64,000 nt of DNA. Source: Parcubacteria bacterium C7867-008 (lineage in GTDB: Bacteria > Patescibacteriota > Minisyncoccia > Phycocordibacterales > Phycocordibacteraceae). The notes below the pieces were generated by a model. It was not told where the DNA came from. It worked only from the letters and a program-made list of their open reading frames with translations, and did not search any database. How positions within the stretch are numbered: position 1 is the stretch's first letter; every line of letters begins with the position of its first letter. Below are positions 11,452 to 33,480 of the stretch, one piece after another. Made by a program: the position numbers and the translations under genes. The stretch is taken from NCBI GenBank assembly GCA_001189215.1, contig LFCR01000006.1, positions 67,550 through 131,549 of the forward strand, written 5' to 3'.

Positions 11452-11482
11452 GGACCCGTCCGCGCATTGCACGGACGGGTCC
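11452..11482. terminator. bidirectional hairpin between convergent genes
   Basis: ggacccgtccg-cgcattgca-cggacgggtcc, an 11-bp perfect stem. Confidence 0.55.
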
Positions 11483-11494
11483 AATCACTTTTAC

Positions 11495-11893: not shown

Positions 11894-11911
11894 GGTGTAC
11901 CTAGAAGAGAA

Positions 11912-12124: not shown

Positions 12125-12276
12125 GTACAGAAATTATATGTGTATAGGATTAAGAATAGCAGGGTATACAGGATGACTGTTGGGGCAGGTGGATAGTCTT
12201 GAAGATTGAAAAAATGACGGAATTGGGTAGGATGAGCAGAACGGACCTGCATAGGTTCGTTGCATGTTCTTAGTTC

Positions 12277-12539
12277 GCCGATGTAGCTCAGGGGTAGAGC
12301 AACTCCATGGTGGGCCGCAAAGCCCTGCCCACGTCTTCTGCGAAGAATTCGTGAATCCCGAATTACGGTTAATAGTCCCACAGGCCAAGACCGTGGCGTT
12401 CTAGATATGGGACGCCCGAACGACTGACAAGGGTATCTCTCGAAGATAAATATACAGTCTAGCCCTTCTCCAAGTGGTACAGGAGAGAAGGTGTAAGCGA
12501 AGGAGTAGGTCGGCAGTTCAATTCTGCCCATCGGCTCCA
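12277..12539 (+). tRNA. intron-containing tRNA, tentatively tRNA-Thr (GGU); exons 12277..12311 and 12500..12539
   Basis: Acceptor GCCGATG/CATCGGC, D-arm GCTC-AGGGGTA-GAGC, anticodon stem ACTCC/GGAGT, T-arm GGCAG-TTCAATT-CTGCC, encoded CCA. The anticodon loop is split AUGGU|AA by a 188-nt insert. Confidence 0.7.
12312..12499 (+). ncRNA. group I-like intron in the tRNA anticodon loop (after position 36)
   Basis: 5' exon ends in U (12311), which can pair with G12327 in a P1 helix (G12310-C12328, G12309-C12329; the intron 5' end GGGC pairs with GCCC). The intron ends in G (12499). Internal P4/P7-like strings (ccaagaccgtgg, acagtctag). No intron ORF. Confidence 0.6.
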
Positions 12540-12540
12540 T

Positions 12541-12861
12541 ATGACAGAGTCTAAAACAAAGGAGCACCCATTTTCCGGTAAGACCGGAAGAATCTTGGTG
12601 CTAGTGTTCACCCTCCTTTATATAGCAGCATCCGGTATTTATTTCTTCACCACGGGTGTGAAGGAATTTACGCTGTATCTTGCTGTACTGTTAGTACTCG
12701 TAGGGCTTGTTGCTTGGACCCTACCGCGCACCAGACTTCCGGTGTGGTCTCTTTGGCTCCTTTCCATTCTCGGCCTCCTCCACGCTCTTGGTGGTGGCGT
12801 ACAGGTGAATGGTGACGTTCTATATAACTTTATTCTGATTCCAATCGTTATAACGGTTTGA
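12541..12861 (+). CDS. hypothetical membrane protein, possibly the N-terminal part of a split gene
   Basis: Three TM helices; overlaps the next ORF by 4 nt in a different frame. Confidence 0.35.
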   Translation: MTESKTKEHPFSGKTGRILVLVFTLLYIAASGIYFFTTGVKEFTLYLAVLLVLVGLVAWTLPRTRLPVWSLWLLSILGLLHALGGGVQVNGDVLYNFILIPIVITV

Positions 12862-13181
12862 ATGGAATCACTCTCTGGCGCTTTGATCAGTTGGTACACC
12901 CATATGGCACTGCAGTGGCTGCACTCATTGCATACTTCTTCATTGCAAGACATGCAAAGCTTCCGCGTATCTGGATGGTTATTCTCGCAGCGTTTGTGGC
13001 AATGGGACTTGGTGCACTCAATGAAGTGATTGAGTTCATTACCAAACTCACTGTTCCTAATACAGACGTAGGTGGATACAACAACACGGCAATAGACCTC
13101 TGTACCAATATGGTCGGTGCAATTATTGGTGCTGCAATTGCTGCACTTAAGTGGGGGAAGAAGCCTCCACTTGATACTTAA
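12858..13181 (+). CDS. hypothetical membrane protein, possibly the C-terminal part of a split gene
   Basis: TTG start; TM helices; LNEVIEF motif. Confidence 0.35.
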   Translation: MNGITLWRFDQLVHPYGTAVAALIAYFFIARHAKLPRIWMVILAAFVAMGLGALNEVIEFITKLTVPNTDVGGYNNTAIDLCTNMVGAIIGAAIAALKWGKKPPLDT

Positions 13182-13217
13182 TCTTTTTGTGGGTACATTG
13201 AGAAACGTATTTAGTTT

Positions 13218-17714: not shown

Positions 17715-17756
17715 TATTGTATTTAATAAACTTTGTGTTATAGTTTAATTAGAGTA

Positions 17757-17775
17757 CCGTATCAGTTCGATACGG
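17757..17775 (+). promoter_or_regulatory. 7-bp perfect hairpin between pyrG and the XRE regulator gene
   Basis: ccgtatc-agttc-gatacgg; no following U-tract. Confidence 0.3.
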
Positions 17776-17794
17776 ACCACTGGGAGAGACTGTA

Positions 17795-18175
17795 GTGGAC
17801 GAAATTGATATTCATCTTGGACGACGTCTCAGGCGCAGGCGCCATTTGCTGGGACTTTCCCAGCAAGAACTCGCACACGCGTGCGGGTTGCAGTTCCAGC
17901 AGATCCAGAAGTACGAATGCGCTGCGAATCGCATGAGTGCTGCTCGTCTGTGGCAGTTGGCAGAAATTCTAGAAGTACCCGTCAGCTACTTCTATGAAGG
18001 ACTCACCAGGCATCAGCGTGATCGGATTGAAGGGGAGACCGCTTCAAGCACCAACGAGGTCATTGCCAGCAAGGAGACGCAGGATCTGATCCGTGCGTAC
18101 TATCAGCTGAACGAACGCCCTCGTCGCAGGCTCCTGGACCTCGCCAAGGCAATGAACGGAGAAATCGAAGCCTGA
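17795..18175 (+). CDS. XRE-family HTH transcriptional regulator (GC-rich, likely acquired)
   Basis: LGLSQQELAHACGLQFQQIQKYE HTH; codon composition visibly GC-richer than neighbours. Confidence 0.65.
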   Translation: MDEIDIHLGRRLRRRRHLLGLSQQELAHACGLQFQQIQKYECAANRMSAARLWQLAEILEVPVSYFYEGLTRHQRDRIEGETASSTNEVIASKETQDLIRAYYQLNERPRRRLLDLAKAMNGEIEA

Positions 18176-20068: not shown

Positions 20069-20140
20069 AGGGTGTGCTTGAAAAAGAGGGCTTTTTCAAG
20101 TATCGTCTGTATACCTTCGCGGCTTCGGCCGCGTCGGCAT

Positions 20141-20211
20141 TGCGGGATCGTCTAATGGTAGGACTGCGGTTTCTGGTACCGTATATCTAGGTTCGAGTCC
20201 TAGTCCCGCAG
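20141..20211 (+). tRNA. tRNA-Gln (CTG)
   Basis: U1-A72 acceptor (TGCGGGA/TCCCGCA) typical of bacterial tRNA-Gln, D-arm GTCT/GGAC, anticodon arm GCGGT-TTCTGGT-ACCGT, T-arm CTAGG-TTCGAGT-CCTAG. Confidence 0.8.
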
Positions 20212-21813
20212 CAAGCTAGGATTTTTGGAGTAGATTTCTCCAATATCCTTTGTATTTCCTAGTTGGTTCTCTGGTTCTAACCTTGCAGAAACAGCGCGAG
20301 CTTCTTCTGCCATGTTTCTTATCGGAAATAACAGATTATCCAATGAAATGCTCAGTTTTCCGTTGGTTAGTTTGTAGTCCGAACCTAATGCAGAGAAGAT
20401 CTCCTTTTTAACACCAAGGTTCTTGTCTGTATTCGCTTTAGAGAAAACAATCGGTGCCTTCTCTGCAAAGTTAAATCCTCGCTCTGCGATCTCTAGCCAG
20501 TTCTCAACGCGTTTGTCAGTATCCTTTAAGAAAGACCATAGACGATCCTTCTCTGCGAGCAATACTTCTTTACGGCTTCGGAACTCATGTTCATCAATCT
20601 CAGAGTTTGAGCGCATATCAATCAGATTATCTATCTTCTTGAGACATGCGTCATACTCGCGGCGCTGGTTTCCAAACATCTGCTCTCGGTCTGTAATCTC
20701 CTTAGCGTTCATGTCCTTTAAACGAGCTACTGCCCATGTGGTGAACTCAGGGGGGATCTCTAGCTTGCTAAGCTCCTCAACAATCTGCTTCTGTAGTTCC
20801 TGTTCCTCAATGGCTTTCTGTGAGCAGTTAGGATCTTTCCGCTTTGTGCAGTGATAGTAGGTGTAATGAGCCACACCACCATTAGCAAGCTTCTTCCATT
20901 TCTCCTCGCCCGTTATAAGGGCATTACATTCACCGCATCGGATCGGACCACGGAAGGTAATCTCACGCTTTCCTTTAGGGCGGGGATTACTTCTTCTGCC
21001 TAGTAGGAACTGTATGCGATCAAACTCTTCACGCGTCATGAGCGGTTCGTGCGTACCTTGGTACCAAAGACCACTTCCAACAGGGTACTCAAATTCCCCG
21101 TAGTAGAACGGGCGAGTGAATAAGTTGTAGGCATTGCTACGGCTTATTTTCTTTCCGCTTGCTGCGCGTAGACCCCAGTCATTTGTAGCTATCTCTAGGA
21201 TACGGGGTGGCGTGTAATCGCCTGTCAGCATGAGGTCCACCATTTTGCGTAAGAGTGGTAGGCGTTCCGTATCGGTATAGATCCTTTTCTTACCCCGCTC
21301 TTCAAACTTATCGTTCTTATAGCCCAGCGGTGCTGGGGCAGGGTATACACCCATCTTTGCCTTCTGCTCAAGCCCGCGCTTCACATCACGGCCTTTCTTG
21401 GCACTCTCGTACTGCGATTGCGAAAGAGCCATTTGAAGCATCCAAATGCCCTCTGGGGAGTTGTTCTCAAAGTGATAGGTGGCAAACTTAAGATCGCTTA
21501 TCTCTCCTGTACGGAGTGTGTAGGTTATGGCACTTGCGTCTACCTCATTACGGGATAGGCGGTCAGGATGCCATGCCAGAAGCCCGTTGCGCTCTCCTGA
21601 GCGCATTCGTATAAGCATGTCAGCAAACTTAGGGCGATTGTAAGGAATGAAGGCACTGCGCTCCTCCTCAATAAACTCTATATCCAGATCTGCAAACATT
21701 TCAGAAAGCTTCGCCTTTTGTGCGGGTATGGAGAGTGCCTGCTTCTCCTTATCCTCAGAGGACTTTCGGAGATAGGCGAAGTATTTAGGTTTGCTCGTTT
21801 TAGCCATACTCAT
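20200..21813 (-). CDS. large serine recombinase (resolvase catalytic domain, recombinase domain, zinc ribbon)
   Basis: N-terminal YLRKSSEDKEKQ catalytic-Ser region and C-terminal CGECNA...YYHCTKRKD zinc ribbon, typical of phage and ICE large serine integrases. Confidence 0.85.
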   Translation of the reverse strand: MSMAKTSKPKYFAYLRKSSEDKEKQALSIPAQKAKLSEMFADLDIEFIEEERSAFIPYNRPKFADMLIRMRSGERNGLLAWHPDRLSRNEVDASAITYTLRTGEISDLKFATYHFENNSPEGIWMLQMALSQSQYESAKKGRDVKRGLEQKAKMGVYPAPAPLGYKNDKFEERGKKRIYTDTERLPLLRKMVDLMLTGDYTPPRILEIATNDWGLRAASGKKISRSNAYNLFTRPFYYGEFEYPVGSGLWYQGTHEPLMTREEFDRIQFLLGRRSNPRPKGKREITFRGPIRCGECNALITGEEKWKKLANGGVAHYTYYHCTKRKDPNCSQKAIEEQELQKQIVEELSKLEIPPEFTTWAVARLKDMNAKEITDREQMFGNQRREYDACLKKIDNLIDMRSNSEIDEHEFRSRKEVLLAEKDRLWSFLKDTDKRVENWLEIAERGFNFAEKAPIVFSKANTDKNLGVKKEIFSALGSDYKLTNGKLSISLDNLLFPIRNMAEEARAVSARLEPENQLGNTKDIGEIYSKNPSLLRD

Positions 21814-21817
21814 ATCA

Positions 21818-23053
21818 TTATACGGCGAGAACCCAGGACATGCGCGTCATCAGTTGGTATCGCTCAATCCCTGCCTCAATAAAGGCGATGCTGTTTGAAT
21901 ACGGTAGGCCTTTGGTTAGCTCTGAGGCCTCCACAAGCCGTTTGGTTAGCCGTTCTGGGTGGTCTGCGCTCCAAACCCTAGAAATCACCCGCCGGACCTC
22001 TTTAGCCCCATTGTCGCGGATAGCACTTGCCAGTCCATAGGAGATCAAGGCACGGTTCAAGCTGTGAGCATTCCCATGCTTTCTGGCTTCCGTGATTATG
22101 TGAGAGAGCAGTCCCAGATCATCTACTGGGCCAAGGAGAGCAAGTTGATTTTCAGGCCTTTTGATGAGGTCGCGCCATGATTTTAAGAGAATGTTTTTGC
22201 ACAGGTCAGGGGTGAATAGATCCTTAAATTTCACAGATGTTTTAGGGTCTCTGCCTAGGTGGGCGTTTATCTCAGAAAGAACTGCTTGGCCTTTTTTAAC
22301 CCGATATTCGTACCTAAATACCTCATGCTTATCTAAGCCGCATCGCTCTATTAAGGCACGCTCCCGTTCCAATCGTCCTTTGTCCTTGCGTTTTACCATT
22401 GGCCGCATCGCATCTGCGATTTTGTCGTAAAAAACTCTCTCACGAGTGCCGGAGTAGATATGCAGCGATTGGCCACCATGTTTGTACTCTACTTTGGTTA
22501 TATCAACTACCTTGCTCATATCTACACGTCCCAATTCATCTAGAACTTCTTTCATTCTTATCTCGGGAGGGAGTAGGACGTTTTTGCATAAATGAAAAGC
22601 AGAGACCTTCGCATTAGCTAAAACCTCACTCTCAATCTGGATACCCACATCCTCAAGTGCCTTTCTAAGTTTGTAGAGAACCTTCTCAAAATCTGCATCA
22701 GATACCTCCTGCAAGCTATTTCCAAATAGTAGCTTAGGGACTGAAAAGGTGAGTTGGATTGTATAGACCACCTCGTCTCGGTCCCTATTTAATGCCTCAT
22801 AAATCTCAACCTTTGGGAGATACTGCCCTGCGTAAGGAGGGTGAAAAACGAAATGACGCAGATATATTGAAAGAGAGCGCAGCTCTGTAGGAGATAGATC
22901 GTGTATTCGCCGGTTGGTTAGTTCAGGTACGAACCATGACCTGTTCAGGATTTTGAACTTTCTCGGCCCAGTTATCTTGATAATTACGGTATCCATAGGA
23001 ACTTCGTTGTTGTCGGTGTTTTTCAAGGAACCCTGTAAGGGCGATTGCTGCAT
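21818..23053 (-). CDS. hypothetical protein of the integrated element (possible replication or mobilisation function)
   Basis: 411-aa ORF 4 nt upstream of the recombinase; no recognisable motif. Confidence 0.35.
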   Translation of the reverse strand: MQQSPLQGSLKNTDNNEVPMDTVIIKITGPRKFKILNRSWFVPELTNRRIHDLSPTELRSLSIYLRHFVFHPPYAGQYLPKVEIYEALNRDRDEVVYTIQLTFSVPKLLFGNSLQEVSDADFEKVLYKLRKALEDVGIQIESEVLANAKVSAFHLCKNVLLPPEIRMKEVLDELGRVDMSKVVDITKVEYKHGGQSLHIYSGTRERVFYDKIADAMRPMVKRKDKGRLERERALIERCGLDKHEVFRYEYRVKKGQAVLSEINAHLGRDPKTSVKFKDLFTPDLCKNILLKSWRDLIKRPENQLALLGPVDDLGLLSHIITEARKHGNAHSLNRALISYGLASAIRDNGAKEVRRVISRVWSADHPERLTKRLVEASELTKGLPYSNSIAFIEAGIERYQLMTRMSWVLAV

Positions 23054-23391
23054 CAGCGTGCAGCAATAACAGCTTTAATCGCGCGGATAATTGCCTCGTC
23101 AATCTCAAAAGGATATTCGCTGTAAAATTCGGCGCTCACATCTTGGATCTCATCTTCACTGAGCGTGGTAGTGCAATGCGTTGCACTAAGTTCCTGAAGT
23201 TGGAAGCGGGTATATAGGGCTGCAATGGGGTAGCGTCTGGTTAGGTACTGCTCGCCTGATCTGCTTACCGGAACAAGGTTAATACTCTCCATGTGCTCCT
23301 CAGCGGCTTTGCTTTGGGCGTTTAACTCTTCCCAGTTAATAGAACGTATATCCTCCATTGAGGCCGCTGCTAATTCGTCATGCCTTTCCAT
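23053..23391 (-). CDS. hypothetical protein
   Basis: Overlapping co-oriented ORF in the element. Confidence 0.3.
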   Translation of the reverse strand: MERHDELAAASMEDIRSINWEELNAQSKAAEEHMESINLVPVSRSGEQYLTRRYPIAALYTRFQLQELSATHCTTTLSEDEIQDVSAEFYSEYPFEIDEAIIRAIKAVIAAR

Positions 23392-23567
23392 ACGTGTGGT
23401 GGTTTATTGGTAATGCATTCTTTTCCCGCCACAGCACGGCTCATTGCCTCAATAAGGCGAACTAGACGTAGGCCTTTATCTAGCGCTTGCGCCTTAGTGA
23501 TCTCAGTTCCATAGTGCTTTTTCCAAAGCTCTTGAAACTCTGCGATGTCCTTATCGGTCAAAACCAT
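23370..23567 (-). CDS. small hypothetical protein
   Basis: 65-aa co-oriented ORF. Confidence 0.25.
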   Translation of the reverse strand: MVLTDKDIAEFQELWKKHYGTEITKAQALDKGLRLVRLIEAMSRAVAGKECITNKPPHVWKGMTN

Positions 23568-23626
23568 ACTGTTTGCCCAGTATGGTTTCTATAAAATTCC
23601 CCGTGCGGTTTTCGGACTAAATAGGA

Positions 23627-24367
23627 CTATTTCCGACTATTCCTGATATGAGCACCTTTTAAGTCATGTTCTAAAATCTCAATATCCACGCCACTTTTTT
23701 GAAGTTCAGCTATAGATACAGTTTTTCTAAATGTCAGAGTGCTATGTGCGCGCTCAGGGAAGAAAGCTTTAAGGATCTCCCCAGTAAATCCAAGAGCATA
23801 TAGAACTTTAGAAAAGCTTTCTTTGCCCAGTTCCGTTTTCATCATCTCCGGTAGCTTTTCTCGCTCAATACGCTGTCCCGAACGCTCAAACACATACTCA
23901 AGGAACCCCAGGTTCTTGCCCGCACCATGAGGTCTGCTTAATAGATATTTGTTTATGTAGACATTTCTATCTTGGATAGATATGGAAAACTCATTCGTTT
24001 CTTTTTGGGCAATCGCGGGTTCACTGCTGTACTGCGAGTACTCGGAATACATCTCATCAAATTTAGGGAAAAGTATGTCAACTAAAAAGCCCTTAGGATC
24101 AATGTCATTGAACATACCTAGACCTGGACTATCTACTATGCTCCCACGTCTGGTGATGTAATTTTCCCGCACCACCCTGAGTGCCTTCTCGTGCCCAAGT
24201 TTTTTGATGATCTTTATTTGGTTTTGTGCGGAAGGATAGGTTTGATTTGGGTGTTCATGCGCAACTTCGTAAGTTACATATTGATCTTCCGGCGTAAGCA
24301 GGTAGTCCTCTTTTAGGCGCTCAATTACTAACCATATTTCTCTAGCAATTTTCTCCTCTTGGGACAT
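23627..24367 (-). CDS. hypothetical protein
   Basis: 246-aa co-oriented ORF; no motif recognised. Confidence 0.35.
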   Translation of the reverse strand: MSQEEKIAREIWLVIERLKEDYLLTPEDQYVTYEVAHEHPNQTYPSAQNQIKIIKKLGHEKALRVVRENYITRRGSIVDSPGLGMFNDIDPKGFLVDILFPKFDEMYSEYSQYSSEPAIAQKETNEFSISIQDRNVYINKYLLSRPHGAGKNLGFLEYVFERSGQRIEREKLPEMMKTELGKESFSKVLYALGFTGEILKAFFPERAHSTLTFRKTVSIAELQKSGVDIEILEHDLKGAHIRNSRK

Positions 24368-24486
24368 AGATACTTAAAATCTACGCTGTTCTGGGGTCTT
24401 TTCAAATAGCGCTTTCCTCGTGCTATCGTATTGACACAATTGAATAGGGCGGCCTAAACCTGCAGAAACCTTCTCGGGCATGGCCT

Positions 24487-24604
24487 CAAGACCGATCAAG
24501 CATAGAAGACCCGTCATGGGGTTCGCTTGATCGGCCATATCGGGAAACCGGTATGCCCGTGGCGGGTCTTCTGTGTACCGCCTCGGTTTACAAGACCGAT
24601 CAAG
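24487..24604 (+). repeat. compound repeat: 14-bp direct repeat caagaccgatcaag (x2) flanking a 10-bp inverted repeat agaagacccg / cgggtcttct
   Basis: Read directly from the sequence; lies between the element genes and the OB-fold protein gene. Confidence 0.5.
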
Positions 24605-24615
24605 AAAAACTAAAT

Positions 24616-25095
24616 ATGGATACGCAATCTGCGTCTGTTAAGAAGCCACTTCTCAAGCGGTGGTGGGTGTGGGTACTTATCGTACTCGTAATATTTATCA
24701 TCATTGGTTCAATAGGCGGCTCAGACCAAACCAGCTCAACAGGCGGAAGTTCTGAGGCCGCTGCTGTACCTGAACCTGCATTCACTCTCACAGCCATACA
24801 AATGGCTTCTGAGTACAAGGAGAACGAGGTCGCTGCAGATGCAAAGTACAAAGGTAAACTGGTTGAACTCTCAGGCACCGTAGACACAATAGGAAAGGAT
24901 ATTGCTGACACTCCTTTCATTGCGTTTGAAACAGAAAATCAGTACGAGATCATCAATCGTATTCAGTGCATGTTCAAGACGGGAGATACCGAAGCACTGT
25001 CTGCAGTAAGTAAAGGCCAGAAAATAACCCTTCGTGGAACAGTATCCGGCGCGCTCGGCAACATCATTGTTAAGAACTGCGAGATAGTTCAGTAG
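24616..25095 (+). CDS. membrane-anchored OB-fold protein (tRNA_anti-like domain)
   Basis: TM anchor then AIQMASEYKENEVAADAKYKGKLVELSGTV, matching the tRNA_anti-like OB-fold signature. Confidence 0.55.
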   Translation: MDTQSASVKKPLLKRWWVWVLIVLVIFIIIGSIGGSDQTSSTGGSSEAAAVPEPAFTLTAIQMASEYKENEVAADAKYKGKLVELSGTVDTIGKDIADTPFIAFETENQYEIINRIQCMFKTGDTEALSAVSKGQKITLRGTVSGALGNIIVKNCEIVQ

Positions 25096-25130
25096 ACGGA
25101 GATAATACGTTACCCCTCAGAAATTAGAAG

Positions 25131-25197
25131 CTGCAGCCGCTATTGCTGCAGGTTGTTTCTAGTGCAACGCCTTGCACTGCATACCCCCTAGGGGTAT
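25131..25197 (+). promoter_or_regulatory. three consecutive palindromes upstream of csoR, including a CsoR-type operator ATACCCCCTAGGGGTAT
   Basis: ctgcagc...gctgcag (25131..25153), agtgcaa-cgcc-ttgcact (25161..25178), atacccccta/ggggtat (25181..25197); the last resembles known CsoR operators. Confidence 0.55.
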
Positions 25198-25208
25198 TAT
25201 TACCTCTA

Positions 25209-25475
25209 ATGAATATAGAGACCAAAAAACAGCTTCAAAACCGACTTAAGCGTATTGAAGGGCAAATCCGAGGTCTACAGCAATTGGTAGATAAAGACAC
25301 ATACTGTATTGATGTTATTACTCAAACCTCAGCCATTAAAAGCGCCCTATCAGGGGTTGAGGATCTTCTTCTTGAGAACCACTTGGATACCTGTGCTTCT
25401 AGTCAGATAAAGTCAGGGAATATTGCGAAGGCAAAGCAAGAAATTCTGGCCGTCTACCGCCTAAAGCGTAAATAG
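25209..25475 (+). CDS. csoR: CsoR/RcnR-family metal-sensing transcriptional repressor
   Basis: [16 protein letters not shown] and the conserved C...H...C ligand positions (YCIDVI, HLDTC); start moved to ATG 25209. Confidence 0.75.
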
Positions 25476-25476
25476 T

Positions 25477-27771
25477 ATGAGTAATCATCAGACGTACCGG
25501 ATTAAAGGTATGCATTGCGCTTCGTGCGCAGGCATCATTGAGCGTACCGTTAAGAAAGTTGAGGGTGTAGAACACGTTGAAGTGAACTATGGGACAGAGA
25601 CCGCCAAGATCGCTTTTGATGAAGCTAAGACCAATCCCCACTATCTTTCCGAACAGATAAAACCACTTGGATACACACTGGTTATACCTACGGCTGAAAG
25701 TATGAGCATGTCGGCTGATGAACACGCTGCTCATACTGGTTTACGCCAGTCCAAGACAGAGAAGCTTGCTGAGATTAAGGACATGCGTTGGAGGGTTCTT
25801 TCTGTCCTTCCGCTTGCCGCATTCAGCATTTTCGTTATGGGGTGGGAAATGGCTGCACAGTTCGGCTGGATCAATACCATTCCGGAGATTTGGTATGAGT
25901 TCTTTCATCACCTCCTGCCGATCTTCGCTACCTACACCATGGTGGTTGTCGGTAAGCCCTACCTACTCGGCTTCTATCGCTTTGTTCGCTATGGGAAGGC
26001 GAACATGGATACTCTTATCGGTATTGGTACTTCTGTTGCCTTTCTCTACAGCTTCGTCCTCACTGCCTTTGAGGAACCACTTAGGCAGTTTCTCAATGTT
26101 GACCAGACCTACTATGACGTAACCATAGTGGTAATCGCCTTTATTGCATTCGGTAAGTATCTTGAGGCCAAGTCCAAGCTCAGGACAGGCGATGCCATTC
26201 AGAAGCTTCTTGGCCTGCAGGCAAAGACGGCGCTAGTCATGCGCGATGGTATAGAGGTTGAACTCCCTATAGAACAGGTCGTACATGGCGATCTAATTGT
26301 TGTGAAGCCAGGCGGGAAGATACCGGTTGATGGTGTTCTTACAGAAGGCAGTTCTTATGTGGATGAAGCTATGGTTACGGGTGAACCTCTACCTGTAGAG
26401 AAAAGAATAGGAAATGCCGTTGTTGCCGGAACCTTGAATACAAAAGGCCACTTCATATTTAAGGCAACCAAAGTAGGTTCAGAGACCTTACTTGCCAGCA
26501 TCATCAAAATGGTAAGCGAGGCGCAAGGCAGCAAAGCGCCTATTCAAGGACTTGCAGACAAGATCTCTAGCGTCTTTGTCCCCATCGTTCTCGTATTCGC
26601 AGTTCTTGTATTTGCGGCATGGCTGTTCTTTGGCATCCCTACATTGGGCTTTGCACAGGCGCTTACACTCGGCCTCACGTCTTTCGTAGGCATTCTTGTG
26701 ATTGCTTGCCCGTGTGCGCTCGGACTTGCTACGCCTATCGCCGTTATCGTTGGAGTAGGTAAGGGAGCTAGTGAGGGCATTCTTATCAAAGATGCAGCTA
26801 CCCTTCAGAAGCTTAGAAGTGTGAACACGATAGTCGTAGATAAAACGGGTACGATCACAAAAGGTAAGCCAGAAGTAGTTGCTCTAGAGACCTACGACAA
26901 TCACTCGGAAGGAGAAATACTGAGCATACTTGCTTCCCTTGAGAACAAATCTGAACACCCTCTTGCAAGCGCAATTCTTGCGTACGCAAAAGATAAAGGG
27001 GTATCAGCAAGTCCAACTGATACGTTTGAAATTATTGAGGGCAAAGGTGTTAAGGGGTCAGTAGGGGGTACGGAGTATTTTGCAGGAAACCCTAACCTCA
27101 TTAGTGATCTTAAACTTAGCTTTGATAACCAAGTCCTTGAAAGCCATACGACTAAGGGAAGGACACCCGTTTTGCTAGCTTCAAGTAAGGAGGTTATGGG
27201 GCTGGTATTAATAGCGGATGCTCTTAAGCCGGAAGCGGCCACAGCTATTAAGAAGCTGCATGGCATGGGAATTTCAATCGTTATGCTTACAGGCGATAAC
27301 AAACAAACAGCTCTCTCAATAGCTAAAGAGGTAGGTATTGATGATGTGGTAGCTGAGGCGTTGCCGGACGAGAAGCTTAATAAAATCAAAGAACTACAGG
27401 CAGCAGGTCGTGTGGTTGCTATGGCAGGAGATGGTGTAAATGATGCTCCAGCGCTCGCACAAGCGGATGTAGGTATTGCTATGGGAACTGGTACAGATGT
27501 GGCTATTGAAACTGCAGGCATCACGCTTCTCCATGGAGACATTTCAAAGCTGGTAAAGGCAGTACGCCTCTCACGCTTCACTATGGCAGGCATCAAGCAA
27601 AACCTCTTCTGGGCTTTCATATACAACTTGGTGGGGATACCGATTGCTGCGGGTATTCTCTATCCGTTCTTCGGCCTGCTTCTCTCACCGGTGATTGCTG
27701 GGCTGGCTATGGCGCTCTCAAGCGTATCTGTGGTGCTCAACTCACTCCGATTAAAAACCGTTAAGCTCTAA
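25477..27771 (+). CDS. copA: copper-translocating P-type ATPase
   Basis: N-terminal [17 protein letters not shown] motif, DKTGTIT phosphorylation site, GDGVNDAP. Confidence 0.9.
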
Positions 27772-27773
27772 TC

Positions 27774-28790
27774 ATGGATACCTACACCTTTCACATTCAA
27801 GGTATGCACTGCAAGTCCTGCATTGCTCTCACAGAAGGAGAGCTGATGGATCTGCCCGAGGTTACTCATGCGCAATCCTCACTCAAGACGCATACCGTGG
27901 ACGTTACTGGTGAGTTTGGCGAACGGACGCCTGAGCAGATCGCGCAGCTCCTTACAGAACCTTTGAAGCGCCATGGATACAGTGTCCATTTGGAAAAACA
28001 GGCGCATAAGGTACGGTGGGCTGATTTCACCTATGCCGTTCCAATAGCGGCTATGTTCGTTGCCGTATTTATCATTCTTCAAAAGCTGGGCATCGTGAAC
28101 CTTGTTGGGGCAGGGGAAATGACTTACACCACGGCCTTTGTCATTGGCCTCGTTGCCTCTGTATCAACCTGTATGGCCGTAGTTGGCGGGCTAGTGCTTT
28201 CAATGTCAGCAAGCTACGCAAAGGAGGGGGAAGCAGTACGTCCGCAGGTGTTGTTCCATATAGGTCGCCTCGCCTCGTTCTTCGTGCTTGGCGGCGTAAT
28301 AGGCGCTATAGGATCAGCGTTTCAGCTCGGAGGGACAGGCACATTTGTTCTTAGCTTCTTTGTTGCAATAATCCTTCTTATTCTCGGTCTCAATCTCCTA
28401 GATATTTTCCCTTGGACCAAGAAGCTTATCCCTACGCTGCCAAGCTCTTTTGGAAAGGGTGTTAGGGGTCTTCAGGGGGCTGCGGGTGTCCTCACACCAC
28501 TCCTTATTGGCGCAGCTACCTTCTTCCTGCCATGCGGCTTCACGCAGTCCATGCAGCTCTACACTCTCACCACTGGCAGCTATCTTGAGGGAGCGTTGAC
28601 GATGTTCATATTTGCCCTTGGAACGCTTCCCGTGCTCGCACTCCTAAGCTTCAGCGCCCTAAGCATTAAGAAGATGCAGACAGGCATGTTCTACAAGACG
28701 GCTGGCCTCGTGGTGATATTCTTCGGTCTCTTTAATCTCATGAACAGCTTGGTTGCTGCAGGACTTATCCAACCACTTATTAGCTTCTAA
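27774..28790 (+). CDS. HMA-domain fused polytopic membrane protein (DsbD_2/TauE-like transporter fold)
   Basis: N-terminal GMHCKSCIALTEGEL metal-binding domain followed by about 6 TM helices with FFLPCGF. Confidence 0.5.
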   Translation: MDTYTFHIQGMHCKSCIALTEGELMDLPEVTHAQSSLKTHTVDVTGEFGERTPEQIAQLLTEPLKRHGYSVHLEKQAHKVRWADFTYAVPIAAMFVAVFIILQKLGIVNLVGAGEMTYTTAFVIGLVASVSTCMAVVGGLVLSMSASYAKEGEAVRPQVLFHIGRLASFFVLGGVIGAIGSAFQLGGTGTFVLSFFVAIILLILGLNLLDIFPWTKKLIPTLPSSFGKGVRGLQGAAGVLTPLLIGAATFFLPCGFTQSMQLYTLTTGSYLEGALTMFIFALGTLPVLALLSFSALSIKKMQTGMFYKTAGLVVIFFGLFNLMNSLVAAGLIQPLISF

Positions 28791-28804
28791 CGTATACTTA
28801 ATTT

Positions 28805-29194
28805 ATGAAAAATTTGCCAATGATCCTCTCGGTCCTCGTAGCTGCTCTGGTGATTGGAGGGGCTATTGTATTTAGCCAGAAACCAGATGGTTCAGGTCAG
28901 GTCGTACAGAATGTCTCTATGGAAGGTGAGAAGCAGATAATTGAAATAGATGCTAAGGGTGGGTACTCTCCTAAGCTCACTACTGCAAAGGCCGGAGTGC
29001 CTACCGTACTTCGTTTAAAGACAAATGGTACCTACGATTGTTCATCAGCGGTGACCATTCCTAGCATTGGGTTCCGTAAGACCCTAGATGCAACTGGTGT
29101 AACTGAAGTTGAAGTACCTTCCAATATTGCACAGGGGACGCTAGAGGGACTATGTTCAATGGGTATGTATAACTTCTCAGTCAAGTTTATTTAA
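28805..29194 (+). CDS. secreted cupredoxin-like copper-binding protein
   Basis: Signal peptide; C-terminal EGLCSMGMYNFSVKF resembles the Cupredoxin_1 C...H/M...M ligand region. Confidence 0.5.
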   Translation: MKNLPMILSVLVAALVIGGAIVFSQKPDGSGQVVQNVSMEGEKQIIEIDAKGGYSPKLTTAKAGVPTVLRLKTNGTYDCSSAVTIPSIGFRKTLDATGVTEVEVPSNIAQGTLEGLCSMGMYNFSVKFI

Positions 29195-29200
29195 GACCTT

Positions 29201-29770
29201 ATGACTCTTGAGCAATATTCCATTCTCCTTTCACTGGGACTTCTTGCCATTTTTACCTTGCTAGTGGTAAGCAGCATTCTGTATGCAGCTGTCCCAGCTG
29301 TTAAGGATCATGTCCGTAAACATTCCTATGCTAATTATCTTTCAGCCATGGCGCTTATCTCAGTTGCAGCCATACTTGGTGCTCTCATCTATCAGCTCGC
29401 ATACCTCACGCCTGTTTGCGAGCTGTGCTGGTGGCAACGCATATTCCTATTCCCAATAAGCGTTATTGCGTTAGTAGCCCTATGGTTTAAAAGTAGGGAA
29501 GCACATATTACGATAGCAATCCTTTCTGTATTCGGTCTCTTCTACGCGCTGTATCACTACTATTACCACTTCCAGGGCTTAGTACTTGGGAACACACTCG
29601 CCCTCCCATGCTCTAGCGGAGGTCTTCTTCCGGCTTGTACAGATAGTCCCATACTGACCTTTGGCTTCATAACAATCCCGTTCATGGGTATCTTGGTCTT
29701 CTCAAGCATGCTGATCCTGGCGTTCTTTGCTCATAAGGCAATGAACCGAGAAACTCAGGCAAATGACTAG
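29201..29770 (+). CDS. dsbB: disulfide bond formation protein B (DsbB/BdbC family)
   Basis: TPVCELCWWQRI motif (CxxC in the first periplasmic loop) and a second Cys pair (PCSSGGLLPAC); 4-5 TM helices. Confidence 0.65.
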   Translation: MTLEQYSILLSLGLLAIFTLLVVSSILYAAVPAVKDHVRKHSYANYLSAMALISVAAILGALIYQLAYLTPVCELCWWQRIFLFPISVIALVALWFKSREAHITIAILSVFGLFYALYHYYYHFQGLVLGNTLALPCSSGGLLPACTDSPILTFGFITIPFMGILVFSSMLILAFFAHKAMNRETQAND

Positions 29771-29791
29771 CAATTGGTATAATTGAGCAAT

Positions 29792-30433
29792 ATGAAAAAG
29801 AACTCAGGATTTTGGATATTAGGAGGGTTGGCGGGTGCGGCAATTGTGCTAATTCTGGTTTCTAATTTTCTAAATGCGTCTCCAGTTTCTAATGAAGTTG
29901 CCGCTCCTATTGCTCTCTCGGCTGATGATCACAAGAAAGGGGCAGAAAATAGCCAAGTTATTCTTATTGAGTACTTGGACTTTGAATGCGAAGCGTGTGG
30001 TGCCTACTATCCGCTCGTAAAGAAGATGGAAGCGGAATTTGGCGACAGAATTACATTCGTTGCTCGGTACTTTCCGCTTCAGGGACACAGGAACGGAGTT
30101 CCAGCAGCCCACGCTGTAGAAGCTGCAAGCCGCCAGGGTAAGTTCTGGGAAATGCATGACATTCTCTATGAACGTCAGAAAGATTGGGGAGAGAAGCAGG
30201 TGGCAACCCCTGAAGTATTTGAGGCATACGCCCAAGAACTTGGACTAGATATGGATAAGTTCAAGGCCGATGTTGGTTCACCTGATGTTGCTGCACGAGT
30301 AAAGCGTGATATGGATGAGGGTATTCAGCTTGGCGTTAAATCAACGCCAACCTTTTTCTTGAATGGAAATAAACTAGCTAACCCGCAATCAGAAGAAGCA
30401 TTCCGATCAATACTTCAGAATGCGCTCCAATAA
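29792..30433 (+). CDS. dsbA: thiol-disulfide oxidoreductase, DsbA/BdbD family
   Basis: Signal or TM anchor, thioredoxin-like CEAC active site (DFECEACGAYYP). Confidence 0.7.
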   Translation: MKKNSGFWILGGLAGAAIVLILVSNFLNASPVSNEVAAPIALSADDHKKGAENSQVILIEYLDFECEACGAYYPLVKKMEAEFGDRITFVARYFPLQGHRNGVPAAHAVEAASRQGKFWEMHDILYERQKDWGEKQVATPEVFEAYAQELGLDMDKFKADVGSPDVAARVKRDMDEGIQLGVKSTPTFFLNGNKLANPQSEEAFRSILQNALQ

Positions 30434-30436
30434 TGC

Positions 30437-31309
30437 ATGAGCAAGCACTCGCACGAGAGTAGTGGAAATATACGAACAGCCCTCTTTCTCAATATTGTCT
30501 TTACGATAGTTGAGCTGATTGGCGGTCTCCTTACAAACAGTCTCGCCATTCTTTCGGACGCTCTCCATGACTTTGGAGACACTATTGTTTTGGCACTTGC
30601 GCTGTATGCGGAGAAGAAGTCAAAGCAGGGTGCAGACGAAAAGCGAACCTATGGCTATGCTCGGCTATCGGTATTCTCAGCACTCGTATCAGGAGCAGTT
30701 CTTATAGGTGGTTCCTTGTTCATCATCTCTCAAGCTATTCCTCGGCTCTTAAACCCAGAGGCGGTACATGCGCCTGGCATGATGATACTGGCTGTAGTGG
30801 GCATCGTTTTCAACGGTATAGGAGCGTATCGCCTCAAGAAGGGAGAAGGAATAAATGAACGAGTGCTCTCCTGGCATCTCTTTGAAGATGTGTTCGGCTG
30901 GATGGCAGTATTCATAGGTGGAGCTTTGATTTACTTCTTCGATCTTCCAATTCTTGACCCAATTCTTACGATCGGCTTCACGCTGTTCATTCTCTGGGGA
31001 GTTATCCGCTCAATGGGAGAGGTAAGCAACATCCTTCTTGAAGGAGTGCCTGAGAAAATAAATCTACAGTTGCTAAAGAGTGATATTCAAAAGATAGAAG
31101 GTGTTCTTGGCCTTCACGATGTGCATGTATGGTCTCTAGAAGGAAAGACGAATGTTCTAAGTGGACATATTGTTGTAAACCCACAAAGCGTAGACGATGG
31201 ACACGCGATACAGCAAAAAGTTAAAGAGATGCTGAAGGATAAGCATGATATTGAACATGCCACGATAGAACTTGAGACCGATGCAAAGTGTGCAGAGAAA
31301 AACTGTTAA
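30437..31309 (+). CDS. czcD: cation diffusion facilitator family Zn/Co/Cd efflux transporter
   Basis: HDFGDTIVLALAL and the other CDF TM signature helices, plus the C-terminal cytoplasmic domain. Confidence 0.8.
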   Translation: MSKHSHESSGNIRTALFLNIVFTIVELIGGLLTNSLAILSDALHDFGDTIVLALALYAEKKSKQGADEKRTYGYARLSVFSALVSGAVLIGGSLFIISQAIPRLLNPEAVHAPGMMILAVVGIVFNGIGAYRLKKGEGINERVLSWHLFEDVFGWMAVFIGGALIYFFDLPILDPILTIGFTLFILWGVIRSMGEVSNILLEGVPEKINLQLLKSDIQKIEGVLGLHDVHVWSLEGKTNVLSGHIVVNPQSVDDGHAIQQKVKEMLKDKHDIEHATIELETDAKCAEKNC

Positions 31310-31431
31310 ATGCAGTTTTACATCCTTTAGATAAGCCATATTTTCATCCCCATTTCTTCATGAAAGCAACATTGACCACTCTCATGGGGAAGCTATACTA
31401 GTGGAACTGGTTAGATACGGTTGTACTCAAG

Positions 31432-31455
31432 AAAAGCCTGTTATGGCTTTTTTGT
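31432..31455 (+). terminator. rho-independent terminator downstream of czcD
   Basis: aaagcc-tgttat-ggcttt followed by tttg. Confidence 0.55.
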
Positions 31456-31605
31456 ATTATGAAGAAACGCTGAACGTCCCTTTGTTTTCCTATACTGCCT
31501 TCCAAGTTTTTCTCCCGTTCTATAGCTCGCGCTAAGAAGAGGGGTACATACAAAGTTTATGGTTCGGTAGCAGCGGTATTCGCTCTATCACTTTTTATCC
31601 ATAGC

Positions 31606-32589
31606 GTGTCGCCACAGTCTGTGGACGGCATCTTTCCTTTCCCGCACACAGCTCATGCTCAATCTGATGGTGAGGGCGGCATGATACATGATCCAAGTAT
31701 TGGTCTCCTTGAAGGGGTAAGGGACCCAAGTGTTCTCAATGAACACGAAATGGAAGTTTCTGGAGGAATGGCGCTTATGCCACATGGCGATCTTCCTGAA
31801 GGTGATGAAACTTCTAGTGCTAGTGGAAAGCAAACTAAACCAAAGAAGACAGGTATCGCTATTTACACAGTGAAAGAAGGGGACTCTCTCTCTGAAATTG
31901 CAGAGGAACACGGTGTTTCCACTAAAACTATTCTTTGGGCAAATGACATCCGTGATGCAAGTACTATCCGTATTGGAGATGACCTCATAATCCTTCCAGT
32001 TTCCGGCGTACAGCATAAAGTAGCTAGCGGAGAAACCCTGCAAGCTATCGCTAAGAAGTACGGATCTGACGTTTCTGACATTGCCTTATACAACGGTATA
32101 AGTGAAAGCAAGGGACTTGCTGCAGGTTCTGAAATCATTGTTCCAGGAGGTGCGTTCCCATCAACTCCACCAAAGAGTATTGGAAGTACTGGCTCATCTA
32201 AAAAAAGTACGGCGTCAACCAAATCTTCAAGCTCATCTTCTTCATCTGGTAAGTTTGGCAACCCGCTTCCTGGAAGGCCAATTTCTCAAGCAAATCATGG
32301 ATACAACGCGGTTGATATAGACGGCGAAACAGGAGACCCAATCTACGCTTCAGCTGGCGGTTCAGTTATTATCGCTAAGGGAGGTGGTGGTTATAACGGA
32401 GGATATGGAAATTACATCGTTATTGATAACGGAGGTGGTGTTCAGACGCTGTACGCCCACATGTCGTCTTTGGAGGTCTCAGGTGGAACAGTTGGTAAGG
32501 GAGAAGTTATCGGATATGTAGGTAATACAGGTAAATCAACAGGTTCGCATCTCCACTTTGAAGTGCGTGGTGCAACCAATCCGCTTTAG
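31606..32589 (+). CDS. LysM-domain M23 family metallopeptidase (start probably upstream, near 31522)
   Basis: Two LysM repeats (YTVKEGDSLSEIA, HKVASGETLQAIA), Ser-rich linker, M23 motifs (NHGYNAVDI, YAHMS, GSHLHFEV). The in-frame upstream sequence encodes a signal-peptide-like AVFALSLFIHS but lacks ATG/GTG/TTG. Confidence 0.75.
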   Translation: MSPQSVDGIFPFPHTAHAQSDGEGGMIHDPSIGLLEGVRDPSVLNEHEMEVSGGMALMPHGDLPEGDETSSASGKQTKPKKTGIAIYTVKEGDSLSEIAEEHGVSTKTILWANDIRDASTIRIGDDLIILPVSGVQHKVASGETLQAIAKKYGSDVSDIALYNGISESKGLAAGSEIIVPGGAFPSTPPKSIGSTGSSKKSTASTKSSSSSSSSGKFGNPLPGRPISQANHGYNAVDIDGETGDPIYASAGGSVIIAKGGGGYNGGYGNYIVIDNGGGVQTLYAHMSSLEVSGGTVGKGEVIGYVGNTGKSTGSHLHFEVRGATNPL

Positions 32590-32605
32590 TAAGTTCAACT
32601 CTCTA

Positions 32606-33370
32606 ATGACAGGAGATAAAAAGTTTCTACAAGAACTAAATATATTCAGAAATGAAGTGCAGTCAGCACTAAGGTTTTTATATACGGAATTAGCGATACG
32701 CGAGATGGGGATTACCCGTAAGGGTGTTCTAGAAGCGATGGATAGAACCCCTACTTTTTGGAATACCGTGCTTAGCTCGTTGCAGCACTCTACATTTATT
32801 ACCTTAGGGAGAATATTTGGCACTGGAAGGCATGACTTTAATAAGCTTTTACGATCTATTCAGGACAATAAAGTAATGTTCACCAAGGCAGCATTTTCTG
32901 AAAGATGGGAGAACAATCCTGATAAGGGGCAGTTAGGTAATTACCTGCAAACCTACCTTAAGCATGTATATGAACCATCCCAGCAGGACTTTGACGACTT
33001 GGTGGCGCATTTCCAAAAGCAGAGAGACCAGTATGAAAGTATCTACAGGGACATCAGGCACCATTTTGGCCATCGTCTCTATATACGCAATGAGGAAATT
33101 GAGAAGTTATTTAATGCGGTCAATATTGTTGAACTGGAGAAGTTTTGCGTGAACCTTGAGGCGCTATGGGATGCTCTCTGGAACCAATATCATAATGGAA
33201 GGGGACCCATGCTCCCGCTTAAACGAAAGAGATATTCAACACGCAATATTCTGAAGGGTAAGACATCGCCATATAAGACACCTCCGAGCAATGCTCAATA
33301 TATTTATGAGGCACAGACAGCCCTAAAGATGCTTGAGAAAGGTAAGCCAAAGAAACCTAAATTGCGCTAG
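32606..33370 (+). CDS. hypothetical protein, possible HEPN/Abi-like defence protein
   Basis: RHHFGH (R-x4-H) near the C-terminus and an all-helical character; weak inference. Confidence 0.3.
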   Translation: MTGDKKFLQELNIFRNEVQSALRFLYTELAIREMGITRKGVLEAMDRTPTFWNTVLSSLQHSTFITLGRIFGTGRHDFNKLLRSIQDNKVMFTKAAFSERWENNPDKGQLGNYLQTYLKHVYEPSQQDFDDLVAHFQKQRDQYESIYRDIRHHFGHRLYIRNEEIEKLFNAVNIVELEKFCVNLEALWDALWNQYHNGRGPMLPLKRKRYSTRNILKGKTSPYKTPPSNAQYIYEAQTALKMLEKGKPKKPKLR

Positions 33371-33480
33371 CAAGTTCAAGATCCGGTAAGAGTTTATAGG
33401 CAAAGTTTGATTTACCAGCCAATAAAACGGTTCTAACTTCGTCCAGTCCCCGCAGCTAATAAATTTGCTAGTATTAGTCT

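Follow-up and report, generated by a model that had tools for sequence, protein, structure and literature searches.

A serine-recombinase element at a tRNA-Gln gene of a Parcubacterium, with a putative attachment site inside its own integrase gene and a LOOT RNA ahead of its cargo

The 64,000-nt stretch of contig LFCR01000006.1 (positions 67,550 to 131,549, forward strand) of Parcubacteria bacterium C7867-008 that was analyzed, referred to here as the window, contains a tRNA-Gln(CTG) gene (20141..20212, +) identified by ARAGORN and by Rfam (tRNA, 57.2 bits). On the opposite strand, overlapping the 3′-end of this gene, is an open reading frame (ORF) that encodes a large serine recombinase (LSR) of 537 aa (20200..21813, -). 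Four minus-strand ORFs, an RNA of the LOOT family and a series of plus-strand genes follow, and beyond these is an array of short related sites that reaches position 40041. The genes flanking the locus are prfB, ftsE, ftsX, that for CTP synthase, and several tRNA genes. A preliminary description, made from the sequence alone, had proposed that an LSR-driven integrative element is inserted at the tRNA-Gln 3′-end, and this is borne out by Pfam and PHROG matches, by the overlap with the tRNA and by the boundaries described below.

Residues 12-156 of the LSR match the Resolvase catalytic domain (PF00239, E 5e-19, 69 bits, cut-off 23.3), with the motif YLRKSSED at the N-terminus, and Recombinase (PF07508, 28.8 bits, cut-off 21.1) and zinc-ribbon (Zn_ribbon_recom, PF13408, 34.7 bits, cut-off 25.3) domains are located C-terminal to it, as required of an LSR. 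The protein also matches the PHROG integrase family phrog_95 (E 6e-60). Its NCBIfam matches to XisF and CcrB are weak and below cut-off (57.7 bits for CcrB, with a cut-off of 900), and those to CcrA and CcrC, also weak, are far under their cut-offs. The LSR stop codon, TAG (CTA at 20200-20202), is positioned within the T-stem of the tRNA-Gln, so that the final LSR codons and stop are the antisense strand of the tRNA gene; the overlap of the stop codon with the tRNA end had already been described, and the ORF and the tRNA gene share 13 nt. The tRNA-Gln is intact after the insertion and has a normal tRNA score. Elements of the Islander type are likewise inserted in the 3′-part of a tRNA gene that stays whole, and have the target segment repeated at their other end, but the sole recombinase here is a serine recombinase rather than a tyrosine integrase. 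A hairpin (GGAGTAGATTTCTCC, 20224-20242) is located just past the tRNA, within the 3′-terminal codons of the LSR gene; hairpins at the same place in L003, L004, L006, L034 and L035 (L numbers designate contigs and loci compared) have compensatory changes and differ in the residues encoded. Part of the phage-type attachment site attP, a tRNA terminator and a nick site are candidate roles for it.

Comparison of the window by blastn with its closest relatives, all in the tRNA orientation, revealed one conserved non-coding distal block, at 33390-33458, that is also present at matching positions in L002, L003, L004 and L033; L011 was added by an exact motif search. Directly after the core of this block, GTTCTAACWTCGTCCA, are several bases similar to the 3′-strand of the acceptor stem of the tRNA that is occupied. 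With a looser search, the distal site was found on the distal side of ~15 loci; in L021, no more than 66 nt separate it from the next host tRNA, so that the element there is limited to 5.2 kb. When both strands of the window are compared with the tRNA 3′-end, the best match other than the tRNA itself is a degenerate copy within this block, at 33432-33457, that has two indels and holds the 8-bp sequence CCCGCAGC, identical to the last 8 nt of the tRNA gene. This is the longest block common to the tRNA end and the distal site and, based on the shared-block search and in-silico joining, it constitutes the attL core (20205..20212, +) and the attR core (33450..33457, +) of an element that spans 20205..33457, 13.25 kb, with its distal attachment (att) site at 33429-33457. 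The crossover would be located at the attL core or at the 3′-edge of this core. Exact and ungapped searches of the window for a duplicated tRNA 3′-end gave nothing convincing, as the true copy has two indels; the earlier statement that no duplicated tRNA end is visible is correct for a simple duplicate, but not for the 8 bp within the degenerate copy. Its companion claim, that a serine integrase leaves no such repeat, is not supported, as this LSR family retains a core of 5-8 bp at both element ends: of the 14 loci tested, 10 have a block of this length that is common to the end of the tRNA and the distal site and that stops at the tRNA terminus (offset 0 to +2).

Read on the minus strand, 33357..33449 encodes the peptide GLDEVRTVLLAGKSNFAYKLLPDLELASAI followed by a stop codon, and includes the motif GGTTCTAACTTCGTCCAG (33429-33446) that is present on the distal side in ~15 related loci. 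When the two cores are joined in silico, the LSR ORF continues in frame into this conserved tail, as it does in 13 of 14 related loci. The rebuilt junction in the window is ...NPSLLR followed by the 29-aa tail GLDEVRTVLLAGKSNFAYKLLPDLELASAI; in L003, ...MLR is followed by ALDEVRTLLLEGKSVFSYNFAN and a stop, and in the Asp and His clades the junction reads ...LR followed by DLVDEV(R/G)TA...YIYIPNL.... The conserved DNA site is therefore the antisense strand of codons for (L)DEVRT. Across the junction, the rebuilt window peptide is 69% identical, free of gaps, to P0125, a contiguous natural protein. Database proteins occur in both forms, some with antisense-tRNA tails (…LRDLESNQD…) and others with natural tails (…LLRELDGVRTHLLEGKSEFFYR…; ...LDGVRTHLLEGKSEF.Y), and two metagenome contigs, L069 and L070, have an unsplit LSR gene with the site inside it and no tRNA. 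The in-frame tail obtained on joining, together with these unsplit genes, places attP within the LSR gene and identifies 33357..33449 as the detached LSR 3′-end, the P arm of attP, a conclusion drawn here from sequence comparison. A full-text literature search found no natural serine integrase with attP inside its own ORF.

The LSR is then predicted to insert a circular form of the element at the extreme 3′-end of the tRNA, leaving the tRNA whole and with only the 5-8 bp core shared. With attP ~30 codons before the natural stop, integration would split the LSR gene, giving an integrated form of 537 aa with final codons from the antisense strand of the tRNA and leaving the tail at the far end, and excision would rebuild a gene for 566 aa. 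The junctions predicted are ...GTTCTAACTTCGTCCAGTCCCCGCAGC joined to AAGCTAGGATTTTTGG... for the circle, ...AAAACGGTTCTAACTTCGTCCAGTCCCCGCAGC joined to AAGCTAGGATTTTTGGAG... for attP and ...GGTTCGAGTCCTAGTCCCGCAGC joined to TAATAAATTTGCTAG... for the bacterial site, attB.

These results bear on where the element ends. The preliminary description had drawn the element as far as 24620, with its boundaries unresolved, and had regarded a compound repeat there as a candidate distal attachment site or operator, an arrangement that would give a short element (~20.2-24.6 kb; LSR plus four ORFs) with the metal genes onward being host DNA. There is a cargo-free version of ~5.2 kb between two host tRNAs in L021, and LOOT is at the edge of the conserved core module, both as expected of such an element. 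The LSR tail and the 8-bp core are, however, at 33357-33457, the interval from 20.2 to 33.4 kb is free of distal-site copies, and the repeat region is a covarying RNA tied to the start codon of the next gene; we consider a short element to be scarcely credible. Position 31.4 kb was also evaluated as the right end, as Logan contig L001 corresponds to 20105..31421, and was rejected, as this position has neither a site nor a core and the LSR tail is found further on, at 33.4 kb. The ends of Logan contigs are at 20120, 20105 and 31421, and among the JGI contigs one terminates at 31470 and another begins at 31397; an att core is present in neither break region (20105-20120, 31397-31470). Perfect copies, 13-23 nt in length, of the 3′-end of the occupied tRNA were found in L010 (at 6075), L012 (1546), L015 (3601) and L029 (771 and 581). 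Those of 14-23 nt in these four loci were considered as attR and rejected; in L010, L012 and L015 they are 150-190 nt past the conserved distal site and do not fit the LSR core. In L012, the surroundings of the copy look like a tRNA with its middle deleted, and these copies may be relics of another integrase. A search of IMG/VR with the 16-mer site returned chance matches and one real terminal copy, in L050.

Homologues of the product of the first minus-strand ORF after the LSR, a protein designated Rep-like for reasons given below, were used to establish how widely such elements occur. A profile from 20 homologues, searched against species-representative genomes, identified 36 loci in Adlerbacteria, Kaiserbacteria, Nomurabacteria, Paceibacteria and others. 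The order small ORF, Rep, LSR and then an opposite-strand tRNA 3′-end is present in 25 of the 36, and the LSR ORF extends into the tRNA in every one of 25 related loci, by 10-62 nt. The occupied tRNAs are Gln-CTG, Gln-TTG, Asn, Asp, Glu-CTC, Glu-TTC and His, and LSR clades and clusters broadly track tRNA identity; L029, with a Rep and no LSR match, is near a tRNA-Met. The element family is widespread in Patescibacteria, with ~30 loci that have this Rep-LSR-tRNA order. Serine integrases at tRNA genes had not previously been reported; 14 of 297 were predicted to be so located, with proof required (Mageeney et al. 2020, PMC7192596). Systematic targeting of tRNA genes by one serine-integrase family, with at least five tRNA identities, is new relative to the families checked, and is at variance with the view that serine integrases do not use tRNA genes, the crossover here being predicted at the very tip of the gene. 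In L002, a group I intron (12877-13200, -; Rfam 84.7 bits) occupies the position at which the target tRNA should abut the LSR, and ARAGORN found no tRNA there. Probably, this region is a tRNA gene interrupted by an intron, such as those recently reported from Patescibacteria (PMC13011429), in which case the LSR family also targets intron-bearing tRNA genes. L020 has two LSR genes 5 kb apart (11336-13048 and 16468-18102), the second abutting a tRNA-Glu, and is possibly a tandem pair of elements.

The presence of the element varies among relatives. The preliminary description had proposed that the same genes beside tRNA-Gln in related genomes, with no empty site anywhere, would refute an integrative element; this is not what was found. 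In L042, upstream synteny is maintained (prfB to DUF1761 to tRNA-Gln) and there is no LSR or Rep downstream, and L044 (JGI11643J12802_12237542, 1248 nt), a close relative of the window genome, has an identical tRNA-Gln and a 94% identical upstream flank, also without LSR and Rep. Four more contigs that share the 41-nt 5′-segment of the tRNA similarly have neither gene. In L021, L022 and L026 the element is at tRNA-Asp and the tRNA-Gln is unoccupied; the tRNA-Asp in the window (3579-3653) has no adjoining LSR. L044 was considered as an empty attB and rejected, as the tRNA is followed by a 217-aa HNH-like ORF and a type B site (see below), a one-cassette state.

An immobile relic, with the LSR truncated by integration and the sites persisting through recent common ancestry, could also account for the integrated structure. 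Only the integrated form is present in two assemblies of this population, the integrated LSR is without its natural 29-aa tail and the M23 peptidase gene within the element has no canonical start. Against this, neither core is disrupted and both ORFs, that of the LSR and that of the tail, are intact; the tail, which contains neither a stop codon nor a frameshift, is 69% identical to natural full-length proteins; moreover, several tRNAs are occupied, unsplit forms exist in metagenomes and presence varies among relatives. A fixed relic is therefore, in our judgment, unlikely.

No match to Pfam, PHROG, NCBIfam or PADLOC was obtained for any of the four minus-strand ORFs between the LSR and LOOT (21818..23053, 23053..23391, 23370..23567 and 23627..24367), in agreement with their earlier description as co-oriented genes without recognizable functions. 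The first, annotated as 411 aa, begins at M20 and encodes a protein of ~392 aa (21818..22996, -). There are more than 257 homologues of this ORF, nearly all metagenome proteins, and the sole taxon-bearing name among them is Patescibacteria. Structurally, the 392-aa protein best matches RepD-type initiators (4cij, 4cwc) and has a Rep_trans fold, in line with the earlier suggestion of a Rep or primase fold, and on this basis it is a candidate rolling-circle initiator or relaxase. Within the sequence RVFYDK, Y209 and K211 are invariant and D210 nearly invariant in the profile of 20 homologues, and this YDK resembles the R-x-Y-N/D-K active-site signature of the Rep_trans family, a lead rather than a test. 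The Pfam Rep_trans profile (PF02486) was not matched. Phage_CRI (the G2P N-terminal domain) was matched by 2 of the 20 homologues (best E 8.7e-6), a sequence-only search of the PDB with the Rep profile returned noise, and IMG/VR has no relatives of the protein. No origin or nick site was identified for it. An excised circle might be replicated by rolling circle, or nicked for transfer, by this Rep_trans-like protein, which could be a MobT-type relaxase.

The other core ORFs encode 112 aa (23053..23391, -), with homologues at the same position in L004 and L005; 65 aa (23370..23567, -), located just upstream of Rep in most related loci and with blastp matches in ~20 loci; and 246 aa (23627..24367, -), the first gene of the core operon, divergent from LOOT, with homologues in L004 and L030 and a weak partial match in L019. 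One small ORF may encode a directionality factor, and the 112-aa ORF is one of two candidates for this role. A 54-aa ORF (24374..24538, -) with a weak AraR_C match lies wholly under LOOT and its promoter-side flank, and is probably spurious and not a gene.

Upstream of the first plus-strand gene, Rfam identifies a LOOT RNA (RF03000; 24451-24566, +) that matches the whole model (positions 1-121) with 70 bits, above the gathering score of 46.4. It continues into a 3′-extension (to 24615; 102 bits with our own covariance model) that runs beyond the Rfam model; what appears in the window as the terminal hairpin of the Rfam match belongs in fact to this extension. The compound repeat of the preliminary description, 14-bp direct repeats around a 10-bp inverted repeat, is located here. 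The direct repeats are confirmed: the 14-mer CAAGACCGATCAAG is present at 24487-24500 and 24591-24604, and a repeat of this length occurred in 0 of 500 shuffles. The inverted repeat is longer than reported, with 20 nt (24501-24520 and 24556-24575) that are 85% complementary. The suggestion that the repeat is an attachment site or an operator is replaced by that of an RNA, LOOT with a covarying 3′-extension, in which the direct and inverted repeats correspond exactly to a mimic of the start region and to a long-range helix.

A covariance model built from six matches and run over the loci compared detected LOOT in 13 loci. In 12 of these, it is on the strand opposite to, and upstream of, Rep; the exception, L009, has no LSR nearby. 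A co-oriented gene always follows, with its start 45-70 nt downstream where this is clear and 146 nt downstream in L009. In the 12 loci, this gene encodes a type III Mod methylase (7), an OB-fold membrane protein (3) or another membrane protein (2). In each of the 12 loci, the segment directly after the Rfam model is paired with the 5′-half of P2 in the apical part of this helix, the duplex having z scores of -2.5 to -5.2 relative to shuffles. In the window, this long-range helix is formed by 24501-24515 with 24561-24575 and its duplex has a z score of -4.0. In a structure-blind MAFFT alignment, 81.7% of cells are paired, whereas sliding the partner reduces this to 41-53%. Compensatory changes are present in 9 of the 15 pairs, and the observed score was reached by 0 of 500 shuffles.

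The second pairing involves the start codon region. An exact 9-16 nt copy of the basal P2 5′-strand is present just before the next start codon in 9 of 12 loci, and the sequence of this repeat varies from locus to locus, always copying the P2 5′-strand. It was matched in ≤13 of 500 shuffles in 8 of the 9 loci and in 30 of 500 in L003. In the window, 24591-24604 is the copy of the P2 5′-strand (24487-24500) and is 11 nt before the ATG at 24616. In 10 of 12 loci, the P2 3′-strand has complementarity to the 38 nt that immediately precede the start codon (z -2.2 to -6.7; -3.6 in the window). The P2 3′-strand could thus pair either with its 5′-partner or with the identical copy before the start codon, and the simplest reading is that LOOT and its extension are a cis-acting translational switch; the pairings are observed features of the sequences, whereas their regulatory use is proposed. 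Weinberg et al. 2017 defined LOOT, without discussion of the motif in the main text, and 28 'cross-covariations' in LOOT were noted by Rivas (PMC7657543). The competing helices described here may be the explanation for these cross-covariations.

Two other roles were weighed for LOOT, as a trans-acting small RNA or as a single-strand origin (sso) that folds as single-stranded DNA (ssDNA) for lagging-strand synthesis of a rolling-circle replicon. Rfam types the family as 'Gene; sRNA', a Rep_trans-like protein is encoded nearby, there are several hairpins with GAAA loops, the LOOT of the window ends in a terminator-like hairpin (24555-24567) and a terminator hairpin is ~30 nt after LOOT in L007. 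Weinberg et al. 2017 allowed that their motifs could be ssDNA structures. A co-oriented gene is, however, always downstream, and a locus-specific copy of the P2 5′-strand beside the start codon would be needless for either an origin or a trans-acting RNA. These roles are on balance doubtful, and a cis-acting leader remains our preferred interpretation. With this, LOOT, an orphan Rfam motif, gains a genomic home and a testable mechanism, that of a leader that frees or masks the start region of a defense or cargo gene.

The gene that follows LOOT in the window, the first cargo gene, encodes an OB-fold membrane protein (tRNA_anti-like, PF12869, E 2.5e-24; 24616..25095, +) that is also Sie-like (superinfection exclusion; phrog_8545, E 2e-26). 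Members of this family are directly after LOOT in L004 and L030 also. The genes from 25209 to 31309 (+) encode CsoR, a CopA P-type ATPase, an HMA/DsbD_2 protein, a cupredoxin, DsbB, DsbA and a CDF (cation diffusion facilitator) efflux protein; CsoR was identified by a Pfam search and the Pfam families were precomputed on an identical Logan contig. The preliminary description had suggested that this copper/zinc/disulfide module may be cargo, which is supported by its position inside the att cores, between the core module and the distal att site, and by related metal modules inside the elements of L012, L015, L030 and L067. The remaining cargo genes encode an M23 peptidase with LysM domains (31606..32589, +; Pfam, with NCBIfam below cut-off) and an AbiU2-type HEPN protein (32606..33370, +; PF18734, E 1.9e-9; a JGI gene call), a candidate for abortive infection. 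The M23 frame continues, uninterrupted, upstream of the GTG at 31606 that is its first canonical start, and a normal signal-anchor N-terminus (ARAKKRGTYKVYGSVAAVF...) is obtained only from an ATA at 31522, which is either a mutated ATG or a non-canonical start. Elsewhere in the family, the commonest cargo is a type III restriction-modification (RM) pair, a Mod methylase (N6_N4_Mtase) and Res (ResIII), present in L003, L006, L011, L033 and L062. There is little to suggest a prophage: PHROG matches in the element are limited to the integrase and the Sie-like protein, with no virion or packaging genes, and Pfam family scans found no conjugation genes in the element. Few mobile elements are known in the reduced-genome Patescibacteria, and this family carries type III RM, abortive-infection and metal-resistance genes.

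Beyond the element, between 33458 and 40041 (+), a regular expression scan, alignment and ORF analysis showed that the distal site recurs nine times in the same orientation, with start positions at 34440, 35187, 35699, 37173, 37858, 38181, 38651, 39403 and 40014. The sites have the form GTTC-N5-TCGT...CAGC and are of three types, A, B and C. The expression GTTC-N5-TC[GA]T[ACT]C has 10 matches in the window, as compared to 0.72 expected, all on the plus strand and all within 33430-40014; the remainder of the 64-kb window has none. Site 1 is that of the LSR element. Of the other nine, five are of type B (GTTCCCACGTCGTACCAAACCCCCAGC) and four of type C (GTTCGAATATCGTCCCAGACKGCCAGC). The antisense strands retain the LSR-tail pattern, as LGVWYDVGT in type B and LAVWDDIRT in type C. 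The intervals, 0.3-1.5 kb, have one ORF each, encoding a 2-hydroxyacid dehydrogenase, an M16 peptidase and several proteins with no assigned function. L042 has a single type C site 4.6 kb after the tRNA-Gln, and the DNA that follows resembles that after site 10 of the window; host sequence therefore probably resumes near 40.04 kb. The nine segments, tandem and recombinase-less with bounding integration-site repeats, are read as putative cassettes without an LSR, or relics, that have accumulated at this one tRNA. Each with one gene and ending in a related site, they would extend the island to ~40.04 kb, and the element family may build cassette arrays at tRNA genes.

A terminator-like or REP-like (repetitive extragenic palindrome) intergenic repeat, distributed throughout the genome and with site 1 near the element end by coincidence, would also generate sites located just after the 3′-ends of plus-strand ORFs, as these are, and five of the ten have the same following sequence, AATTGACTTTT. 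This is difficult to reconcile with the restriction of all ten to 33.4-40.0 kb, with the preservation of the LSR-tail peptide pattern in the antisense of every subtype, with the extension of the LSR ORF by 29 conserved codons at site 1 and with the position of the site, in other genomes, at the distal edge of an LSR element. We regard such a repeat as very unlikely, and the sites as related to the LSR attachment site. More speculatively, and with a modest chance of being correct, the locus could be a serine-recombinase analogue of an integron, with the LSR element as its platform, the nine one-ORF segments as mobile cassettes that each have a minimal attP-like site and are captured and released by the LSR in trans, LOOT a riboswitch that senses a ligand or state and sets the expression of the first cargo or defense gene, and the exchange of the LSR C-terminus a directionality switch. 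The existence of two LSR forms, 537 aa when integrated and 566 aa when free, could provide a simple genetic switch of this kind, and a serine integrase with attP inside its ORF may be of interest to engineers of such enzymes.

Taken together, a 13.25-kb LSR element with a split gene, a Rep core, cargo, a LOOT switch and cassettes beyond its end is the likely explanation for this locus; excision, replication, switching and cassette mobility extend beyond the sequence-level facts and are proposed as such. Several observations weigh against it. At its ends, the attR core is preceded by one C more than the tRNA (CCCCGCAGC as compared to TCCCGCAGC) and the exact crossover dinucleotide is therefore not fixed, and the reconstructed attP has no significant ungapped dyad symmetry, so that neither symmetry of the arms nor an exact crossover base is claimed here. 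Neither a circular junction nor an empty site was found in this genome, the two independent assemblies containing only the integrated form, no relative joins tRNA-Gln directly to DNA like the distal flank of the window, and both assemblies break near 31.4 kb inside the element, with no cause found. The argument for a Rep function is a fold similarity at 12% identity. For LOOT, the start-region pairing is absent in L004 and L030 (2 of the 12 LOOT loci), L007 also has no repeat and its pairing falls on the terminator hairpin, and the MAFFT alignment loses register in the start region, where per-locus duplex tests were used instead of column-based covariation. No LOOT was detected in L002, L011, L021 and L033 by the covariance search (E up to 1), and element movement therefore does not need LOOT. 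By the canonical rules for serine integrases, an attL should not accept further insertions, and the array is therefore not explained by simple repeated integration.

Among known systems, the staphylococcal cassette chromosome (SCC) may be the closest. The CcrAB and CcrC LSRs insert a circle at the 3′-end of a housekeeping gene, which remains functional, short integration-site repeats bound the element, and recombinase-less cassettes pile up in tandem, as in SCCmec composite islands. LSR insertion at a gene 3′-end, bounding repeats and adjacent recombinase-less segments are common to both. The target of SCC is, however, rlmH and its recombinases are a ccrA/ccrB pair, whereas there is here a tRNA target, a Patescibacteria host and one recombinase, which is not a member of the Ccr family, its similarity to Ccr proteins being far below family level. 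In addition, attP would be within the gene for this recombinase, and a leader RNA with defined structure and a gene for a Rep-like protein are present. In the myxophage Mx8 (intP/attP) and the fusellovirus SSV1, attP is in the integrase gene, tRNAs are the targets and integration alters or splits the gene, which excision restores, as predicted here; those enzymes are tyrosine recombinases, whereas an LSR here would exchange ~29 C-terminal residues. Phage and related serine recombinases (phiC31, Bxb1, A118, SPbeta SprA, TnpX and XisF) have the same Resolvase-Recombinase-zinc ribbon architecture and site-specific integration of a circle, but the serine integrases of phages and integrative and conjugative elements (ICEs) differ from a whole family located at tRNA genes of at least five identities. 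The RepC/RepD proteins of pT181/pC221 and MobT/NicK of Tn916 and ICEBs1 are similar to the Rep-like protein in the RepD-type fold matches, with a YDK in the latter that resembles their active-site signature, and ICEBs1 replicates by rolling circle after excision; here, there is no Pfam Rep_trans match, and no origin or conjugation genes were found in the element. Integrons also have co-oriented one-ORF cassettes with site-like repeats beside a site-specific recombinase gene, but with a tyrosine recombinase and folded attC hairpins, whereas the putative cassette array in the window has linear motifs of ~27 nt homologous to an LSR attP arm and is anchored at a tRNA. LOOT, typed by Rfam as a small RNA gene, has here a fixed position before the first cargo gene of LSR-Rep elements of Patescibacteria, and a covarying 3′-extension that is not part of the Rfam model. 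The locus looks like a composite island, to which the staphylococcal SCC composite island is the nearest known arrangement, with a one-ORF-plus-site pattern that recalls integrons, and what is new relative to the families checked is the tRNA targeting, the putative attP in the integrase ORF, the genomic home and proposed cis mechanism of LOOT, and a possible cassette array.

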